Below, piece after piece: positions 24,437 through 47,052 of a stretch of 64,000 bases of DNA (positions are counted from its first letter, which is position 1; each line of letters begins with the position of its first letter). The stretch is taken from assembly GCA_965656495.1 (NCBI GenBank), contig CBFHKU010000003.1, positions 64,001 to 128,000 of the forward strand. The letters are read 5' to 3'. The DNA is from Coraliomargaritaceae bacterium. Its GTDB lineage: Bacteria > Verrucomicrobiota > Verrucomicrobiia > Opitutales > Coraliomargaritaceae. A model generated the notes under the pieces. It did not search any database and was not told the origin of the DNA. It worked only from the letters and a program-made list of their open reading frames with translations. The position numbers and the translations under genes were made by a program.

Positions 24437-24690
24437 AAACACAGAGGATTGGAGTTATAGAAAAACGCGGAGGATCAAAGAATTGGAGTTGTGGATATTA
24501 TAAACGCAGAGGATCAAAGAAATGGAGTTATTTATTATAAACGCGGAGGATCAAAGAATCGGAGTTATGGATGTAATAAACGCAGAGCATCAAAGAATCG
24601 GAGTTATGGATGTAATAAACGCAGAGCATCAAAGAATCGGAGTTGTTGATTTAATGAATATCTCTCCGTTCCTCTGCTCCTCTGCGTTAA
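24437..24690. repeat. Tandem 37-39-bp repeat array closed by one inverted copy
   Basis: Units AAACGCRGAGSATCAAAGAAWYGGAGTT start at 24463, 24502, 24539, 24578, 24617 (truncated unit at 24437); inverted copy CTCTCCGTTCCTCTGCTCCTCTGCGTTAA at 24662-24690. Confidence 0.95.
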
Positions 24691-38198: not shown

Positions 38199-39491
38199 AT
38201 GGAGGAGCAAACCGCACTCATTCGCCTCGACGATACTAACTACGAATTCCCCCTTATTCTAGGAACTGAGGGCGAAAAAGCCTTTGATATACGCAGCCTG
38301 CGCGCGAAATCCGGCTACATTGCCTTTGATGAAGGCTACGGTAACACCGGTTCCTGCCTGAGTGATATCACTTTTATCGACGGCGAACAGGGGGTCTTGC
38401 GGCATCGGGGTTACCCCATCGAGCAACTGGCGGCAAAGTCCACCTTCCTCGAAACCGCCATGCTCATCATTTATGGTGAATTGCCCGCTGAGGAAAAACT
38501 AAACACCTTTCGCCAACAGGTGCGCGGCAGTGCGACGATTCACACCAGCATGCACCACCACTTTGAAGGCTTCCCCAGCAACGCCCATCCCATGTCGATT
38601 CTTTCGGCGATGCTCAATGCCCTCGGTGCCTACTACCCCGAGATGTCCTCCAATGACCGCGAGCAGGACCTCGCCCATTTTGATGAGACCGCCGCCCTCC
38701 TGATTTCCAAAGTGCGCACCATTGCGGCCATGACCTTCCGCATGAAAAAGGGACTCCCCTTTGTGGCGCCCGACCACTCGAGGCGCTATTGCGAGAATTT
38801 CCTCCATATGATGTTCTCTGAGCCCTACGAGGAATACGTCGATAATGTCGGAGCGGGCGATGCCCTCGATCTCTTCCTGCGCTTACATGCTGACCACGAG
38901 CAAAACTGCTCCACCTCAACCGTGCGCATGGTCGCATCCGGCGGTGCAAATCTCTTCGCCTCCGTCTCCGCCGGGGTCTGCGCTCTCTGGGGGCCCTCCC
39001 ACGGCGGCGCCAACATGGCGGTCGTGCAAATGCTCGAGGATATCCACGCCAGCGGTGACGACGGGTCACGCTTTATCGAGGCCGCCAAAGAAGGCAAAGC
39101 CAAGCTCATGGGCTTCGGGCACCGCGTCTACAAAAACTACGACCCCCGCGCCAAGATCCTCGGCAAGACCGTCGAGCAAGTCCTCACCCAAATCGGCGTG
39201 GACGATCCCCTGCTCAAGATCGCCCGGCGTTTGGAGCAATCCGCCCTCGAGGACGATTACTTCGTCAGCCGCAAACTTTATCCCAATGTGGATTTCTACA
39301 GCGGGATCCTCCTGCGCGCCATCGGCATCCCGCCGGAAATGTTTACCGTCATGTTCGCGATTGGCCGCATGCCGGGCTGGATCGCAAATTGGAAGGAAAT
39401 CGCCGAAAACCCCAAGGGCCGTATTCACCGACCCCGCCAGATCTACACCGGTCAAGGGCTTCGCGACTACACCCCCCTCGAAAAACGCTAA
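38199..39491 (+). CDS. gltA: Citrate synthase (type II)
   Basis: [40 protein letters not shown]. Confidence 0.97.
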
Positions 39492-40279
39492 GCGGAATCC
39501 CCGCTCTTACTCGCTTTCTCTTCCGGCGCGTGGACCACGTCCTCCAGCTTCAGGCCCGTGTAGCGGTGGATGCCGCGCAGCAACATCCACAGGGCCAGCA
39601 CCATAATCGCGAGACTCGGCACCACGATCACCGGCCAGCTCCACGCCATCATTTTCGCCACCTCCGCATTGAAGGCATCCGAACCACTCGGGCTCACCAC
39701 AATCCAGCGCGCCAGCATAAAATTTAAAACCGCGCTCAACAGAAACGAGCCCGCCAACAGCCAGGTGCATTTTTCCAGCAGCTTCTCAAAACCCGCCACC
39801 GAATCATTTTCCTCCAGCGCAGCCTGCACCTTATCGACATCCATAATCTCCGGCGAGTAGAGCAGCGTCCGGATCAAAGGGTAGGGCGTCTTCAGCGAAA
39901 TCACCACCGCTATCCCAATCAGCGCCGGGATCGCCGCCTCCTTCACCGCAAACCATTCCGTCGGAATATTCAGGATGCCGATCCCGCCCGTCAGCAGCAC
40001 GCTGATCAGTCCCAGAATCGAGAGGAAGTTGTATTTCTGCCGCTTGAAATAATCATAGATGAAATAGACGACTGGGAAAGCCAGCGCGATCAACAGAATC
40101 GGAATCGCGACATTCTCAAAGTGCGGCTCCAAATAGGCGCCGAACCAACCGCGCCCCTTATTTAATATCATAATCGGCAAAAGAATATTAAAGCCGAGGT
40201 TGAGGAACATGTTCTCCTTTTTCGGTGCCGGTTTTCCCGCCGTCGAACTTTCCGAGGTGCTGTGTTGCGAAGCTGCCAT
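39488..40279 (-). CDS. Multi-TM membrane protein (VC0807-like)
   Basis: [38 protein letters not shown]. Confidence 0.7.
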
Positions 40280-40304
40280 AAACCGCACTAGGCTTCCCAC
40301 TCAT

Positions 40305-40955
40305 ATGTCAAATGCAAGCTCTATCCGCTGCCTCATCACCGCCGGACCGACCCGCGAGTTCCTCGACCCGGTGCGTTTCCTGAGTAATCCCTCCACCGGT
40401 AAGATGGGTTTTGCCCTCGCCGAGGCCGCCCTCCGCCTCGGTTGGAATGTCGATCTCGTCGCCGGCCCCGTCAGCCTGCCCGAGCCCGAAGGCGCCATCC
40501 TATACCCCGTGGTAAGCGCCGAGGAAATGTTCCATCAGGCCGACGCCCTTTTCGATGCCTGCGATGTCTGCATCATGGCTGCCGCCGTCAGCGATTTCCG
40601 CCCCGCGCACTATCAAGCCCAAAAAGAAAAGAAGACCGATGCCGCCCTCAGCCTCCAACTGGAGCGCACCCCCGACATCCTCGCCACCCTCACCGAGCGC
40701 AAACTCCATCAAACCGTGGTTGGATTCGCCGCCGAGACCCAACACCTCGCCGAAAACGCCCGCGCCAAACTCGCCGCCAAACGCTGCGACCTCATTATCG
40801 CCAACGACCTCACCCAACCCGGCGCCGGATTTGCCACCGATACCAATACCGTCACCCTCTTCGCCGCCGACGGTTCAGACGAAACCCTCGGCCCCGCCCT
40901 CAAATCCGCCCTCGCCACCGAAATTATCCACCGCATCGCCCGCCTCCGCCCTTGA
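40305..40955 (+). CDS. coaB: Stand-alone phosphopantothenate-cysteine ligase
   Basis: [42 protein letters not shown]; no CoaC domain. Confidence 0.9.
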
Positions 40956-40984
40956 GCCCGCTTCCAGCATTGTCATCCCCTCAG

Positions 40985-41036
40985 TCTTACTCATACTCTA
41001 AATCCTAATCTTAATCCTACTCTTAATCTTAATCCT
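40985..41036. repeat. Hexamer array (TCYTAM)n, left arm of an inverted pair
   Basis: tcttac tcatac tctaaa tcctaa tcttaa tcctac tcttaa tcttaa tcct, then a C9 run at 41037-41045. Confidence 0.92.
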
Positions 41037-41064
41037 CCCCCCCCCATCTAAAACAACAGTCCAC

Positions 41065-41463
41065 ATGGCTTCCGCCCTCGATCACGAAAAATTAAAGGTG
41101 TATCAAAAAACCCTTCAATTTATCAGTGAGGTGGAAACGCTGCGAAGCGAAATCCCCAAAGGACACACCGCCGCAATCCATCTCGAACGAGCCGCGACCT
41201 CCATCGCACTCAACATTGCAGAAGGAAATGGTAAATATACCGCCGCAGACCGTTGCCGATTTTTTGATATTGCCCGAGGCTCTGCCACTGAATGTGCCGC
41301 AGCTCTGGACATCCTTAATGCAAAAGCAGTCCTCAGTAATGAGACTACAATTCCCGCCAAGGCCCTGCTTTCTGAAATTGTTGCGATGTTGGTCGGATTA
41401 ATTCGCAGTCAAAATTCTGGACGAACGCACGAACCTCCTCAGCCTTACAATGCAAAGGATTAG
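41065..41463 (+). CDS. Four-helix-bundle protein (23S rRNA intervening-sequence protein / TIGR02436-like family)
   Basis: HEKLKVYQK, LERAATSIALNIAEGNG, RFFDIARGSATEC, EIVAMLVGLI. Confidence 0.92.
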   Translation: MASALDHEKLKVYQKTLQFISEVETLRSEIPKGHTAAIHLERAATSIALNIAEGNGKYTAADRCRFFDIARGSATECAAALDILNAKAVLSNETTIPAKALLSEIVAMLVGLIRSQNSGRTHEPPQPYNAKD

Positions 41464-41489
41464 CTTGTGCTTTCTGAATTGTTGGAAAG

Positions 41490-41555
41490 GTTAGAGTGAG
41501 ATTAAGATTAGGATTAAGATTAGGATTAAGATTAAGAGTAAGAATAAGGGGAAGA
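41490..41555. repeat. Hexamer array (KTARGA)n, right arm, reverse complement of 40985-41036
   Basis: gttaga gtgaga ttaaga ttagga ttaaga ttagga ttaaga ttaaga gtaaga ataagg ggaaga. Confidence 0.92.
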
Positions 41556-41580
41556 GGAAGTTTATCATTTATAAAGGCAT

Positions 41581-42765
41581 ATGAAAAATACCGGGCTTGA
41601 TAAAATCCTGGGCCGAATTGAGGATCTCGACTCGGTCAACCTCGGTATTCTCGTCCAGCGCCTCGCCCGCGAGCGCAAACTTCAGGAAACCGTCTTCAAT
41701 ACCATTCAGGATGGCATCCTCGTCATTGATACCGATGGCATCGTGCAATACGCCAACGCCGCCGCCCTCGGCATCATCGGTCTCAAGGAAAACGACATCG
41801 GCACCGCCCGCCTCTGGAAAATGGTGCCCGACCTCGCCCGCTCCATCGACCCGCAAAGCGTGGACGGTTCCCGCGCCGCGAAACCCGTCCTCGCCCGCGA
41901 AGTCGAGCTCACCTATCCCGAACGCCGCTACCTCCGCCTTTATATGGTGCCCATTGCCACCCAGGTCGGCGCGTCCGATAGCGGCGGTTACGTCGTGGTC
42001 CTCACCGACGTCACCGAAGACAAGGTCACCCTCGAAGAACGCATCGAGAGCGAACGCATTGATTCCATCATGCGCCTTGCCGCCGGAGTCGCCCATGAAC
42101 TCGGCAACCCCCTCAACTCCCTCACCATCCACCTGCAACTCATCAAGCGTCAACTCGCCAAACTAGAAGCCGACGCCGGGTCGCCCGCCTCCAAATCCAT
42201 CGCCGATTCCCTCCAAATCTGCCAGGGCGAAGTTTCCCGCCTCGATGGCATCATTACCCATTTCCTCGAGGCAGTCCGCCCACAAAAACCCGAACTCAAC
42301 GAGATCAACCTCCTCGAACTCGTCGAGGAAGTCCTGCGCGTGCAGGAGGCTGAGCTCGTGGACCGCAAGCTCGAGATCGACATCGAGGTCAACGATACCC
42401 CGCCCGCCATTCTCGGCGACCGCGGACAAATCAAGCAGGTCTTTTTCAACGTCACCAAAAACGCCATGGAAGCCATGCAGGCCGGTGGACAACTCCGCAT
42501 CCGTACCGCCCTCGACGACGAATTCCTCACCCTCCAATTCATTGACACCGGTTCCGGCATCGCCGAAGCCGACCTCGCCAAAGTCCTCCAGGCCTATTAT
42601 ACCACCAAAGAAGAAGGCCATGGCCTCGGCATGATGATCGTCCAACGCATCATGCGCGACCACGGCGGACAAATCGGAATCGAATCCCGCGAGGGTGCCG
42701 GCACCGTCATTTCCCTCCAATTCCCCCTCCCGCATCGCCGCACCCGACTCCTCGAAGGCGATTAA
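41581..42765 (+). CDS. PAS-domain sensor histidine kinase (NtrB-like)
   Basis: [40 protein letters not shown]. Confidence 0.93.
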
Positions 42766-42828
42766 AAACAATTACTTGCGCATAAATGGTTGCATACCGC
42801 CAAATTCTCTTTTTTCTCCTCCGCTAGC

Positions 42829-43986
42829 ATGGCAAACGGTTTTAAAGAAGGAATACTCGCATTTGAAGACGGAACAATTTTCCGCGGACGCGCCTTTGGA
42901 GCCGCCGCCACCAAAACCGGAGAGGCCTGTTTCAACACCAGCATGACCGGTTATCAGGAAATCCTGACCGATCCCTCCTATTTCTCCCAGATCATCACCA
43001 TGACCGCCGTCCAGATCGGGAACTACGGTATTTGCCCCGAGGATGTTGAATCCGATGGCCCCAAGGTTAGCGGCTTCGTGGTGCGTGAGGTCAGCCCCCT
43101 CACCAGCAATTGGCGGAGCAACCAGTCCATCCAGGACTACCTCACCGAAGCAGGCATCCCCGGCCTCGAAGGCGTCGATACCCGCGCCATCACCAAAAAA
43201 CTCCGCGTCGCCGGTGCCCTCAACGCCTGCCTCAGCACCGAAGGCCTCAGCGATGAGGAAGCCGTCGCCAAAGCCCGCGATTTCGGCGGACTCGTCGGAG
43301 TCGATTTTGTCAAGGAAGTCACCGCCGCCGCCCCCTACGATTGGACCGCCCGCGGCGAGCCCTGCACTCCCTTTACCGTCGTCGGTACCGATATAAGCAC
43401 CGCCCCCGTTCCCCAGCAACGCTTCAAAATTGCCGCCCTCGACTTTGGCGCCAAATACTCCATCTATCGCCGCCTCCAACAACACGGCTTCGACGTCCAC
43501 GTCTTCCCCGCCAACACCCCCGCCGAGGCCATCCGCGAATTCAATCCCCAGGGACTCTTCCTTTCCAACGGCCCCGGCGATCCCGCCGCCGTCACCTACG
43601 CCCACGCCACCGTGCGCGAACTCATCGACCATTATCCCACCTTTGGCATCTGCCTCGGGCACCAGATCATCACCCACGCCCTCGGCGCCGAAACCTTTAA
43701 GCTCAAATTCGGGCACCGCGGCGGCAACCAACCCGTCAAGAATCTCGAGACCGGAAAAGTTGCCATCACCGCTCAGAATCACGGCTTCGCCTCCACCAAA
43801 GAAGAACTCGAAAAACACGGCGCCATCGTCACCGAGATCAACCTCAACGACCAAACCGTCGAAGGCCTCCGCCTTAAGGACCGCCCCGTCTTCTCCGTGC
43901 AATACCACCCCGAGGCCGCCCCCGGCCCCAACGACGCCGACCCCCTCTTCACCGAATTCCATCAACTCGTCGCCCAACACGTATAG
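42829..43986 (+). CDS. carA: Carbamoyl-phosphate synthase small subunit
   Basis: [45 protein letters not shown]. Confidence 0.97.
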
Positions 43987-44000
43987 GGTGTGGGTGGCTA

Positions 44001-44056
44001 AGGGGTGGGAAAGTGCAAAGGTGTGAAAGTGGGAAGGTTAGGGAACGTCAAAAGTA
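44001..44056. repeat. Octamer array (GAARGTNN)n directly after carA
   Basis: aggggtgg gaaagtgc aaaggtgt gaaagtgg gaaggtta, then gaacgtca aaagt. Confidence 0.75.
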
Positions 44057-44521
44057 ACCCACGCGCCAACCAATAGCATGTGTACCAGTGATGCCATTTT
44101 TTAAGGAAACGCATACAGAAGCTTCTTGGCTACGAAGCCTTCATGGTTAGAGCGGTCGATGGATCTGCATGACTTCGGTGCAGGTTTTTGAAAAACCAAC
44201 GGCAACCGAAGCGATAACAGGCATCCCGGTTCCTTTATGGAAGGGAAGCTTGCTTATTCGTTGAACACCCAAGCACAAAGCCCACCTCGAATGTGCGTGT
44301 CCCGGTTAACCGCAGGGTCCAAGCGGAACCCAATCTGCCGGACCGCTGCTGAATTCGGTATGGATGCGACTCCTGCAGCTATGTATTTCAATTTATGACT
44401 CAGCTGAAGCACAATCGCAAGCATCCAGCTTCTGTATTGCCCTAAGGCCAGCTTAGCTGGCGACCGCTAATGGGCGCTGATTTTCGCTAATCCTTAAAAC
44501 AAAAATATGAGCGGTTCCCGG

Positions 44522-44663
44522 CTCTGCGTTTTATATTCTAACGCGGAGGAGCTCTCAAACTCTGCGTTTATGATTTAACGCGGAGGAGCGGAGGATCAGA
44601 GGCTCTGCGTTTATGATTTAACGCGGAGGAGCGGAGGAGCGAAGGGCTCTCAAACTCTGCGTT
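44522..44663. repeat. REP-like palindrome array, left of the Doc-type TA pair
   Basis: CTCTGCGTT-(8-9 nt AT-rich)-AACGCGGAG at 44522-44548, 44560-44585, 44603-44628; extra half-site 44655-44663. Confidence 0.95.
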
Positions 44664-44709
44664 GGATAGTTGACTTGCAAATTATTGTGAAATCGCAGAT
44701 AGTAAAGGT

Positions 44710-44895
44710 ATGGATGCAATGGAAGTCATCGACCACTTCAAGCGCTTACCTGAAGAAGAACAAGGTAAGGTCGTTGAGTTCATCCGTAAGGATAGCTCTG
44801 CGAAAGTGCGCTATGCCGACGATGAGGCTGCCAAAGCTGCGGGCGAGGCTGTCTTTAATGAACACCCCGAAGTGTTCCGCAAGTTGGCACAATGA
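44710..44895 (+). CDS. Putative antitoxin of the Doc-type toxin
   Basis: 61 aa; ATGA overlap with the toxin; C-terminal FNEHPEVFRKLAQ resembles Doc-neutralising helices. Confidence 0.7.
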   Translation: MDAMEVIDHFKRLPEEEQGKVVEFIRKDSSAKVRYADDEAAKAAGEAVFNEHPEVFRKLAQ

Positions 44896-45275
44896 GCGAT
44901 CCGGTCTTTTTGACGACCGCTCAGGTAGAAGCTTATCACAGACGAGGCTTGGAGCTTTATGGCGGTTCCGAAGGTCTCCGGAACCGTTCTCTTTTTGAAA
45001 GTGCGGTAGCTCAGGCTCAGAACGTATACTGGTATGGAAATGGCGACCTGTATGACATTGCGGCGGCTTACTGCTACTATATCGCACAAGTCCAAGTGTT
45101 CCTTGATGGGAATAAAAGGGCTGCAACTGCTGCATGCTTGGCCTTCCTGAAGTTGAACGGTGTCAGAACTGATATTGAACTGACGATGCCTCTCTATAAT
45201 GCCTTGATTGATATTGCAGAACATCGCATGGACCGTGACGGTCTGGCGGGCATGCTTCGCGAGTTGCTCACATAG
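44892..45275 (+). CDS. Death-on-curing (Doc/Fic) family toxin
   Basis: YGGSEGLRN..LFESA, AAAY, FLDGNKR. Confidence 0.88.
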   Translation: MSDPVFLTTAQVEAYHRRGLELYGGSEGLRNRSLFESAVAQAQNVYWYGNGDLYDIAAAYCYYIAQVQVFLDGNKRAATAACLAFLKLNGVRTDIELTMPLYNALIDIAEHRMDRDGLAGMLRELLT

Positions 45276-45341
45276 CCGCAAAAGGGGGTTAAAGGTGGGA
45301 ACGTTGAACGACGGGCGTTGTTGAGTTGTGACCCTTTGCTG

Positions 45342-45473
45342 CTCTGCGTTTATGATTTAACGCGGAGGAGCAGAGGAGCAGAGGCTCTGCGTTTTATATT
45401 TTAACGCGGAGGAGCGGAGGAGCAGAGGGGCTCTGGAACTCTGCGTTTTATATTTTAACGCGGAGGGGCGCGG
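45342..45473. repeat. REP-like palindrome array, right of the Doc-type TA pair
   Basis: CTCTGCGTT-(8-9 nt)-AACGCGGAG at 45342-45367, 45385-45411, 45439-45465, with GAGCRGAG tails. Confidence 0.95.
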
Positions 45474-45474
45474 C

Positions 45475-47052
45475 TCAATTAAGGAGGGCGTTGGATTCGA
45501 GCCAGGTGAGGAAGTTGTCGGTGGCGGCTTGGGCGGTGTCGACGGGGATGCCGCCACGGGCGCGGACTTTTTCGGCTTCATTGGGTTCAAAGGTACGGAT
45601 GATGGCTTTGGCGGATCCGCTGCGAAGGGTGTCGAGGGCGACGCGGGCGTCGCGGCTGCGGCGCATGGAACAAAGCACGACACGGGCTTCGCGGGCATTG
45701 ACCTGTTGGAGGACGCGGGCGTCTGAGCCGTCGCCCTGGAGGGCATGGTTTCCGCGTTCCCGGAGTTGGCGGACCACGGAGGCGTCGTCATCGACCACTA
45801 TAACTTCGAGCCCGTGCTCGATGAGGAATTGCACAGTCTGGCGGCCCGCGCGTCCGTAACCGAGGAGGACGGCGTGATCCTTAAAGGTTTTAAATGCATC
45901 GCTGCGGGCGTAGCGGGGTTTGGGGTGGAGCTTCATGAGTCGCCAGGCGATGGAATCGCGCGACACCAGGGGGGTGAGGGTCATGGTGCCGACCGTGATG
46001 AGGGCGAGCATGGAGAAGAGTTCGGGGCTGAGGTGTCCGGCGCTCATGCCGAAGAAGGCGAGGAGGAGGGAAAATTCACTGGTCTGGGAAAGGAGGATGC
46101 CGGCTTCGAGGGCGGCGCGGGTGGAGTAGCCGAGCCGCTCGGCGAGGAAGGTGACGAGGAGGACCGTGACGAGGATGAGGACCAGAATAAGGACGAGGCC
46201 GTGAACCGCCATGGAGGCGGTGGGGAGGGTCAGGACAAAACCGATGCTGATAAAAAAGAGGGCGAGGAAGAAACCGGTGAGGGAATGGAGCATGCCCCGG
46301 ACGAGTCCATTCATGGGGAAGGCGGAGAGGACAAAGCCCGCGAGGAAGGCCCCGACGAGGTAGGGGAGGTCGAGGAGGTGGGCGATTGCGGAAAAGGTGA
46401 AGAGGGTGGCGAGGGCGCCGAGCATGAGGGTTTCTTCATCGGCGCTGAAGCGACCGCAGACCCAGGGGATAAGGCGTCGGTGGAGGAGGAGGGCGGCGGC
46501 ACCGAGGGCGAGGGCTTTGAGGAGGGCGGTAGCGCAGAGGAGGGGTCCGCCTGCCACCGCTTGCAGGCCTACGATCACGAGAATGATAAAGACGTCCTGC
46601 ATGAGGAGAACGCCCACTACGAGGCGTCCGTAGGGTTCAAAGAATTGGCGGCGTTGCTGGAGGTGGCGCACCGCCACGAGGGTAGAACTGGCGGAAAGTG
46701 CCGAGCCAATATAGAAAGCGGTCATCCAATCATAGCCGAGCCACCGCGCGGTGAGGCTCCCGGCGAGACCCAGCAAGAGGAACTGGGTGAAGGCTAGGAT
46801 AAGAACCGGTCGGGCGCGGCCTTTGACGCGGCGTGGGCTGAGGTCGGCGCCGGCGGTAAAGACGAGGACCGCGAGTCCGAGCTCGATGGTTTCACGCACA
46901 AGGGCGGGATCGATCTGGATTTGAAGGGCATCGGCGAGGAATTGGAGGCCGACCCCGCCGAGCATGAGGAGCGGGATGACGGGAAGTCGCACGAGCTTGG
47001 CGAGGCCAAAGGCGAGCGCTGCCACAAGGAGGAGGATGGCGTAACCGCTCAT
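45475..47052 (-). CDS. CPA2/Kef-type cation:proton antiporter with TrkA-N (RCK) domain
   Basis: [31 protein letters not shown]; start inferred at ATG 47052. Confidence 0.88.

Follow-up and report, generated by a model that had tools for sequence, protein, structure and literature searches.

A four-helix-bundle gene between facing hexamer arrays, and a possible pairing of PF05635 clades with their own repeat units

We found that a gene of the PF05635/TIGR02436 four-helix-bundle family, located between coaB and a histidine kinase gene of a Coraliomargaritaceae bacterium, is enclosed by two facing arrays of one degenerate hexamer, and that relatives from its protein clade are enclosed by the same hexamer across several phyla. 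This phenomenon is real and widespread. By analogy with RAYT proteins and REPINs, and at about even confidence, we propose a pairing in which the predicted pentamer would read roughly five units of its own repeat and would keep or spread the arrays.

The locus lies in the window, by which we mean the whole 64,000-nt stretch of DNA analysed, and has the following features.

40305..40955, plus strand: coaB, the upstream host gene, comprising the C-terminal CoaBC / DFP domain only (PF04127, E 1e-68; TIGR00521 positions 188-391)
40973..41036, plus strand: left arm, an array of degenerate TCNTAH hexamers in tandem (eight units plus TC in the core at 40985-41034, with degenerate units outside)
40991..40994, plus strand: TCAT, a 4-nt direct repeat paired with 41565-41568; tentative break point of a cassette-less allele in one run
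41065..41463, plus strand: PF05635/TIGR02436 four-helix-bundle gene, 132 aa, of the hexamer-associated clade (profiles, tree, 2GSC match and structure model)
41490..41555, minus strand: right arm, hexamers of the same family on the other strand (nine-unit core at 41490-41543)
41565..41568, plus strand: TCAT, partner of 40991-40994 at the cassette-less joint
41581..42765, plus strand: PAS-domain histidine kinase, the downstream host gene (PF02518, PF00512 and PAS families)

The preliminary description of this DNA had counted about nine hexamer units before the gene and about ten after it, a fair estimate given our parse of eight clear units plus TC on the left and nine on the right, with degenerate units beyond. 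It had also described an AT-richer 132-aa gene between co-oriented coaB and kinase genes, and both profile matches and base composition (48.6% GC in the PF05635 ORF vs 63.2% in coaB and 59.7% in the kinase) confirmed this. A repeat search paired 40973-41034 with 41494-41555 as inverted arms of 62 nt each, 85% complementary and with 459 nt between them, and returned five further slipped pairing registers of 37-51 nt, while TRF reported period-6 arrays at 40985-41036 and 41499-41548. The coaB and kinase genes are co-oriented with each other around the PF05635 gene, and the cassette site is between these protein-coding genes, not inside an rRNA gene. Apart from the 4-nt TCAT, the window cassette is without a target duplication, and it is without a long terminal inverted repeat; as had been stated earlier, no transposase is attached to it. 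No Rfam family was significant in 39000-46000, a promoter and terminator scan did not rise above shuffles, and PADLOC returned no defence-system match.

For the RNA spanning 40956-41583, the predicted fold pairs the two arms and places the ORF in the loop (-191.5 kcal/mol; z = -8.6 relative to 20 shuffles), in agreement with the earlier proposal of a slippable stem around the ORF. Four RNA runs contained 0.05-0.07 of the sequence words, and none covered the locus. The strong fold favours a reading that we consider possible but doubtful, in which gene and arms are a passive, stem-bounded passenger: they would move together by recombination or by hitch-hiking on other elements, the dispersed arrays described below would be scars, the importance of the arms would lie in the RNA stem that they form (a target of RNase III in rRNA settings), and no recognition of the repeat by the protein would be required. 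Passages of PMC4990558 on the Coxiella 23S rRNA intervening sequence (IVS) point the same way, as they describe a 28-bp stem cut by RNase III, tandem heptamers beside the ORF, and an RNA that the authors consider more important than the protein. The evidence from clade consensus, spacers and arm register, given below, argues against it.

The window protein matched PF05635 (E 1e-21; 77.4 bits vs a cut-off of 33.8) and TIGR02436 (72.5 bits vs a cut-off of 24), and gave no match to a GIY-YIG domain, to HUH-Y1 or to a nuclease or transposase family. A structure model made with 76 clade sequences places four helices at residues 4-27, 35-56, 60-86 and 92-116 (pLDDT 91). The R-x3-S-x3-N-x2-E motif of the family, as it appears in passages of PMC3936711 that place the family in cas loci only, is present in the window protein as R42, S46, N50 and E53; the invariant polar residues are Q39, R42, S46, N50, E53 and E76. 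The sole solved sequence relative that we found, Xcc0516 (PDB 2GSC, E 5e-7), has five chains and is called a homopentamer in passages of PMC4990558. Avd, the accessory protein of DGRs, is described in passages of 10.1101/2023.10.23.563531 as a pentamer resembling S23 proteins, with flipped-out RNA bases entering crevices between its subunits, and as binding RNA without doing chemistry. By analogy with Xcc0516 and Avd, the window protein is likely a five-subunit ring. It contains 15 K/R and 15 D/E residues, a net charge near zero. PF05635 was the only domain in 76 of 76 clade members searched, with no bAvd Pfam match, and look-alikes in a protein-cluster atlas were PF05635 clusters only, one of which had 24% bAvd.

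The structural likeness of Avd to the family, reported in passages of 10.1101/2023.10.23.563531, also suggests a reading that we regard as highly improbable, in which the protein would be an Avd-like helper of a reverse transcriptase (RT) that writes degenerate units onto DNA ends, telomere-fashion, around a unique spacer. Scrambled unit order, facing polarity and one RT-family match in the source genome are consistent with this. However, PF00078 does not track the arrays in 41 genomes: G003, G006, G009 and G014 have arrays without PF00078, and several RT-positive genomes are without arrays. Furthermore, no RT lies beside the gene, the sole PF00078 match is on another contig, and no Rfam template RNA was found.

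The window copy may be decaying, because a His replaces the nearly invariant Q39, because its branch in the tree is long, and because alleles of the gene with a 72-nt deletion occur (in G006 and in DNA runs X3 and X9). Intact alleles look constrained, because six of the nine ORF differences between strains among the rows listed are synonymous and three are not (binomial p 0.008). We also observed tandem-bundle PF05635 ORFs with two domains and ~255-285 aa in several Verrucomicrobiota (L306, L307, L308, L311, L314, L316); these are mostly flanked by longer-period inverted arrays, and their first domain is without part of the N-I-A-E-G motif.

The relation between protein and repeat was assessed on a tree of 141 distinct domains, assembled from the 80 closest matches to the window protein in the genome collection together with the PF05635 genes found in 40 relatives (seven of 148 rows being dropped as duplicates or as <80 aa) and built by a quick IQ-TREE search that leaves 66 of 138 forks open. 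The window protein falls in a long-branch clade of 86 of the 141 rows (SH-aLRT 99). The flank period is 6 in 84 of the 86 clade rows and 7 or 8 in 51 of the 55 rows outside. Using a flank test of two tandem TCNTRH units within 200 nt, applied to loci with full flanks, we found arrays at the 81 clade loci on both sides in 67 cases, on one side in 9 and on neither in 5, compared with 0 of 55 other-clade loci and 2 of 132 control windows 1.1 kb away. Examination of family flanks, which the preliminary description had proposed as a check, thus places inverted arrays at most loci of the same clade. Polarity varies: the pyrimidine strand is upstream at 42 clade loci, the arrangement is reversed at 7 and the arrays are direct at 3, and the rest have dimers. 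Hosts of the clade include Verrucomicrobiota, Planctomycetota, Bacteroidota, Desulfobacterota, SAR324 and others.

The source genome has four PF05635 paralogs, each inside inverted arrays of a different unit (6-, 7-, 8- and 7-mer). Because paralogs in one genome carry different units, the repeat unit follows the protein and not the host. Only one of the four belongs to the hexamer clade, and most gene-positive genomes likewise have a single clade copy, G276 being the exception. The third paralog (L003, G000:C3:59905) follows a truncated gene start that is partly repeated downstream and that is presumably nucleotidyltransferase-like.

Gene and arrays also co-occur across 301 genomes of the phylum. 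At least 10 array matches were present in 17 of 44 gene-positive genomes (profile hit at E<=1e-25) vs 12 of 257 gene-negative ones (odds ratio 12.9, kin not being independent), and any match in 28 of 44 vs 29 of 257. Fewer than 10 matches occurred in 27 of the 44 gene-positive genomes, 16 of which had none of that pattern; in six gene-positive genomes without the pattern, variant hexamers surround the clade gene in inverted orientation. Arrays were present and the clade gene was not found in G003, G005 and G014, and G059 (one contig, 99% complete) has array matches and no profile hit at E<=1e-4. Array matches number 57 in G059, 430 in G070 and 166 in G282, with no single-domain clade gene found in these three; G070 has the two-domain form. 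The match of clade and unit is no proof of recognition, because linkage alone would co-inherit gene and arms, and this co-inheritance is a real rival to recognition. A neutral stem of the kind required by a passive passenger gives no reason for one consensus across phyla at ~50% protein identity.

We surveyed the history of the cassette at the coaB-kinase junction using 30 kinase loci, of which 26 (the window's own included) have coaB adjoining, giving 25 relatives. Empty alleles, which had been proposed as a further check, exist: 20 of the 25 relatives having both neighbours are without the gene, three congeners among them. The other five have the cassette, intact in G012 and G016 and broken, with arrays, in G006, G009 and G018. 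The junction is also filled in G163, G166, L111 (Lentimonas) and L136 (Opitutales), and these filled loci assign the window to the Opitutales. In other genera, orthologs flanked by this hexamer occupy the same junction, and the pairwise identities of the PF05635 gene track those of coaB and the kinase. As the gene identities follow those of its neighbours, this supports vertical descent with repeated loss or breakage, and recent insertion at the junction is ruled out by the orthologs and the identity pattern. We conclude that the cassette has long resided at the coaB-kinase junction, is passed on there by vertical descent and is often in decay. The preliminary description had proposed a mobile or excisable cassette; movement of the gene over long times is supported (77 homolog loci in 54 neighbourhood groups), and a recent insertion or current mobility or excision at this site is not.

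An autonomous element that is currently mobile or precisely excising at this locus is accordingly a very unlikely reading. It would account for the three empty congeners, for the many neighbourhoods of the homologs and for a contig of run X11 that is without 40995-41568 and is joined across TCAT. However, this cassette-less joint was seen in one of eight DNA runs, on one contig at depth 7.5 with a 29-nt side (gene depth in X11: 14.7 vs 20-22 in the flanks). The vertical identity pattern, the single clade copy in the genome and the missing terminal repeat and target duplication also argue against it, as does the viral collection, in which none of 79 pattern matches was confirmed. Across the eight runs, the number of hexamer units differs between strains.

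The arrays are not peculiar to the PF05635 gene, because 55 TCYTAH arrays in 29 clusters occur across the source genome (2.06 Mb); the three largest contigs, C1-C3, contain 26, vs 0 and 0 in two block shuffles. Almost all dispersed arrays are gene-less. They lie between genes (just two of the 55 overlap an ORF of >=200 aa, the same repeat-spanning ORF in both cases), share boundary motifs with the gene's arms, and are nested in mosaics with other short repeats. Facing array pairs within 700 nt number 12 with the gene's polarity and 0 with the opposite one. Array sites differ between congeners, several of which have no arrays.

Arrays that are intergenic and often abut start codons, and whose unit numbers slip between strains, are what might be seen if the ring were a regulator that binds arrays in mRNA or DNA and tunes operons and itself, the arrays spreading by recombination and slippage and being retained where useful. 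We consider this unlikely. RNA binding by Avd without catalysis (passages of 10.1101/2023.10.23.563531) is in its favour, as is the post-transcriptional role proposed for TAACTGA arrays in PMC4679880, a paper whose searched passages do not mention the PF05635/TIGR02436 family. However, array sites that vary between congeners, or are missing altogether, are poor regulon behaviour, and regulation leaves unexplained both the inverted dimers with unique spacers and the swaps of whole cassettes described below.

The other repeats of the mosaics each trace to a small gene flanked by that repeat: the 8-mer to the second PF05635 gene, a palindrome to a Y1 transposase gene, and the 9-10-mers to GxxExxY genes. 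The Y1 gene is flanked by the palindrome of the same intergenic mosaics and the GxxExxY genes by their own repeats, and these known or predicted nucleases show the same gene-plus-own-repeat logic in the source genome. The five GxxExxY genes (L007-L011) and two Y1 genes (L005-L006) are mostly flanked by their own mosaic-recurrent repeats, and GxxExxY looks like a further gene-plus-cognate-repeat class.

Further repeats occur elsewhere in the window. An array of the GGTGGGAA-type 8-mer, whose family brackets the PF05635 paralog at G000:C3:150269, lies after carA at 44000-44040. A CTCTGCG...CGCGGAGGAG repeat, similar to the one next to the GxxExxY gene L009, forms direct arrays at 44533-44660 and 45341-45470 that flank a small ORF and a Fic/Doc gene (44675-45275), possibly a toxin-antitoxin pair delivered between repeats. 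At 24463-24655 there is a 39-nt tandem repeat in five copies. Outside the window, a ~1-kb gene that lies between two mosaics in the source genome is missing from G006 (G000:C12:9738-11701 vs L193), as if by deletion through recombination between the repeats, or by assembly collapse. The genes flanking the mosaics at G000:C16:3691-4271 and C1:101141-101863 are on different contigs in the congeners searched, and these mosaics may mark rearrangement junctions or assembly breaks.

Gene-less inverted dimers are abundant in G012, with ~40 among the 100 of 174 matches listed and 0 in a reversed-pattern control. Forty-seven G012 loci that we examined gave 36 dimer rows. Each has a spacer of its own, in most cases 5-34 nt long, and target duplications were present at 4 of the 36 rows vs 2.4 when shuffled, no excess. 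One spacer matches sequence just inside the gene's left arm, at the inner left end of the cassette, as would suit a passive passenger, and three dimer arms are identical to that arm. However, just this one spacer fits the cassette end and most are unique. We rejected the proposal that the dimers are simple deletion products of the present cassette, as one spacer fits and the other 8-9-nt matches look like chance.

Arms of five units are the mode in each set counted: 33 of 50 G012 arms, 28 of the 46 left arms and 16 of the 46 right arms around genes, and 22 of 55 source-genome arrays. The order of units differs in 29 of the 33 five-unit arms. Under a looser counting rule the hexamer mode is six (46 of 144) and that of 7- and 8-mer arms is five (21 of 63 and 6 of 14, respectively). 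The window's own arms have 8-9 units.

Register matching between facing arms showed no excess over shuffled unit order, either in 25 dimers (p 0.87/0.60) or in 46 gene-flanking pairs (p 0.40/0.44). This counts against the passive passenger, and selection for an RNase III stem is not supported, because a selected stem would be expected to match in register. For want of an in-register excess, we also rejected the arms as hairpin copies or as a stem selected for perfect pairing. On the reading that we prefer, the long RNA stem simply results from two arrays of one family facing each other. Partner swaps between genomes lower the arm match, so each genome has its own unit dialect.

Comparison of other junctions showed that, on a long time scale, whole gene-plus-arm units arrive, replace one another and disappear. 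At gltB-gltD, parts of the arms persist in 'empty' congener alleles, in one case from another type of cassette, as would also suit a passive passenger; at another junction, the gene in G016 belongs to a different clade and its arms differ as well. Lost cassettes have thus left some of the gene-less arrays behind as scars.

In G276, which gave 15 partial profile hits, mostly at contig ends, near-identical cassettes (L330-L356) lie inside a 24-bp terminal inverted repeat located outside the hexamer arrays. This MITE-like element has 27 ends and three complete copies, all with internally deleted ORFs and no transposase inside, and exact 9-bp target duplications flank two of the three complete copies. 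Other repeat elements are inserted into one copy. As the G276 copies sit inside a MITE, a transposase encoded elsewhere can propagate the cassette; the window copy is without such ends. Hitch-hiking of this kind favours the passive passenger, but the MITE was seen in one genome.

Under the pairing that we prefer, the resident gene would encode a four-helix-bundle protein forming a five-subunit ring; the ring would bind about five tandem hexamer units in a sequence-specific manner, one unit per subunit; and in this way it would keep up or propagate the arrays, in the manner of RAYT with REPINs. The substrate would be DNA or RNA, and the chemistry would be provided by the invariant polar residues or by a host or mobile-element enzyme. 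We favour this reading because the clade predicts the unit, paralogs differ in their units, gene and arrays co-occur, inverted dimers exist, the arms have a five-to-six-unit mode, a relative of the protein has five chains, the Y1 and GxxExxY genes of the source genome follow the same logic and intact alleles look constrained. Against it stand the array-bearing genomes without the gene, the gene-positive genomes with few or no matches, the dependence of the mode on the counting rule, the missing match to nuclease or transposase families, and a near-zero charge unlike the positively charged Avd barrel. The possible decay of the window copy, the scars among the gene-less arrays and the MITE-borne spread in G276 also count against it.

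Several known systems resemble the cassette, which nevertheless fails the defining tests for RAYT, Ssn, DGR, MITE and IVS. According to passages of PMC5581495 and PMC3733652, RAYT genes occur in single copy, descend mostly vertically and have REPINs on their flanks, and the RAYT/REP/REPIN systems, together with TIRtrons, share with the cassette a small gene of this kind flanked by inverted repeat copies. Intergenic gene-less inverted doublets with a spacer, repeat mosaics and several cognate pairs per genome are further likenesses in these passages. However, the protein here is a PF05635 helical bundle and not an HUH tyrosine transposase (PF01797), and the repeat is a tandem TCNTAH array and not the 20-40-nt palindrome with a GTAG/CGTC tag described for REPINs; the two Y1 genes of the source genome lie elsewhere, with other repeats. 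Ssn (SsnA) with its NTS/SRM repeats, in passages of PMC11893778, has its own flanking repeat in many genomic copies and a variant per homolog, but it is an ssDNA nuclease of the GIY-YIG type whose targets are hairpin repeats, whereas here there is neither a GIY-YIG domain nor a hairpin within the arms. The 23S rRNA IVSs (S23p/IVP; Coxiella, Leptospira) contain the same family, an ORF in a stem loop and ORF-adjacent tandem repeats (passages of PMC4990558, which do not link the repeats to dispersed families or protein clades); the cassette differs in having hexamers in place of heptamers, protein-coding neighbours and arms that are not register-matched. Avd and Xcc0516 are likewise four-helix bundles, both described as pentamers, and 2GSC is a sequence homolog, but in contrast to DGRs no RT, template or variable repeat lies beside the gene, whose product is nearly uncharged overall. 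MITEs are similarly non-autonomous with inverted ends, and the G276 cassette is inside a MITE-like unit; the window cassette and the G012 dimers differ in being without such termini or duplications, the terminal repeat having been examined in G276 only.

The protein family and its rRNA-IVS setting are already known, as is gene-plus-cognate-repeat logic from RAYT and Ssn. In the openly accessible literature searched, no paper joins the PF05635/TIGR02436 family to dispersed tandem arrays. To this the present analysis adds the controlled definition of the hexamer clade, counts of gene and array co-occurrence, the test of arm register, the preferred arm length and the derivative borne by a MITE.

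We tentatively suggest, as a possibility that we would not yet call probable, that PF05635 is a third, non-HUH and non-GIY-YIG, class of repeat-cognate protein: pentameric rings, each clade of which would recognise a unit of its own, 6, 7 or 8 nt long, in groups of five and would actively write or mobilise the arrays of PVC, Bacteroidota, Desulfobacterota and other genomes, with rRNA IVSs being such cassettes that landed in 23S rRNA. If true, this would amount to a natural code that relates protein sequence to repeat unit. Our finding links a large family with a solved structure to unexplained 6-8-nt intergenic tandem arrays that have been noted for a long time and to ORF-bearing rRNA IVSs, and it makes the function of the family testable, as a predicted substrate lies beside each gene and paralogs of the same genome serve as swap controls. 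If recognition is real, the clade-unit pairs would be natural, small and modular nucleic-acid binders.
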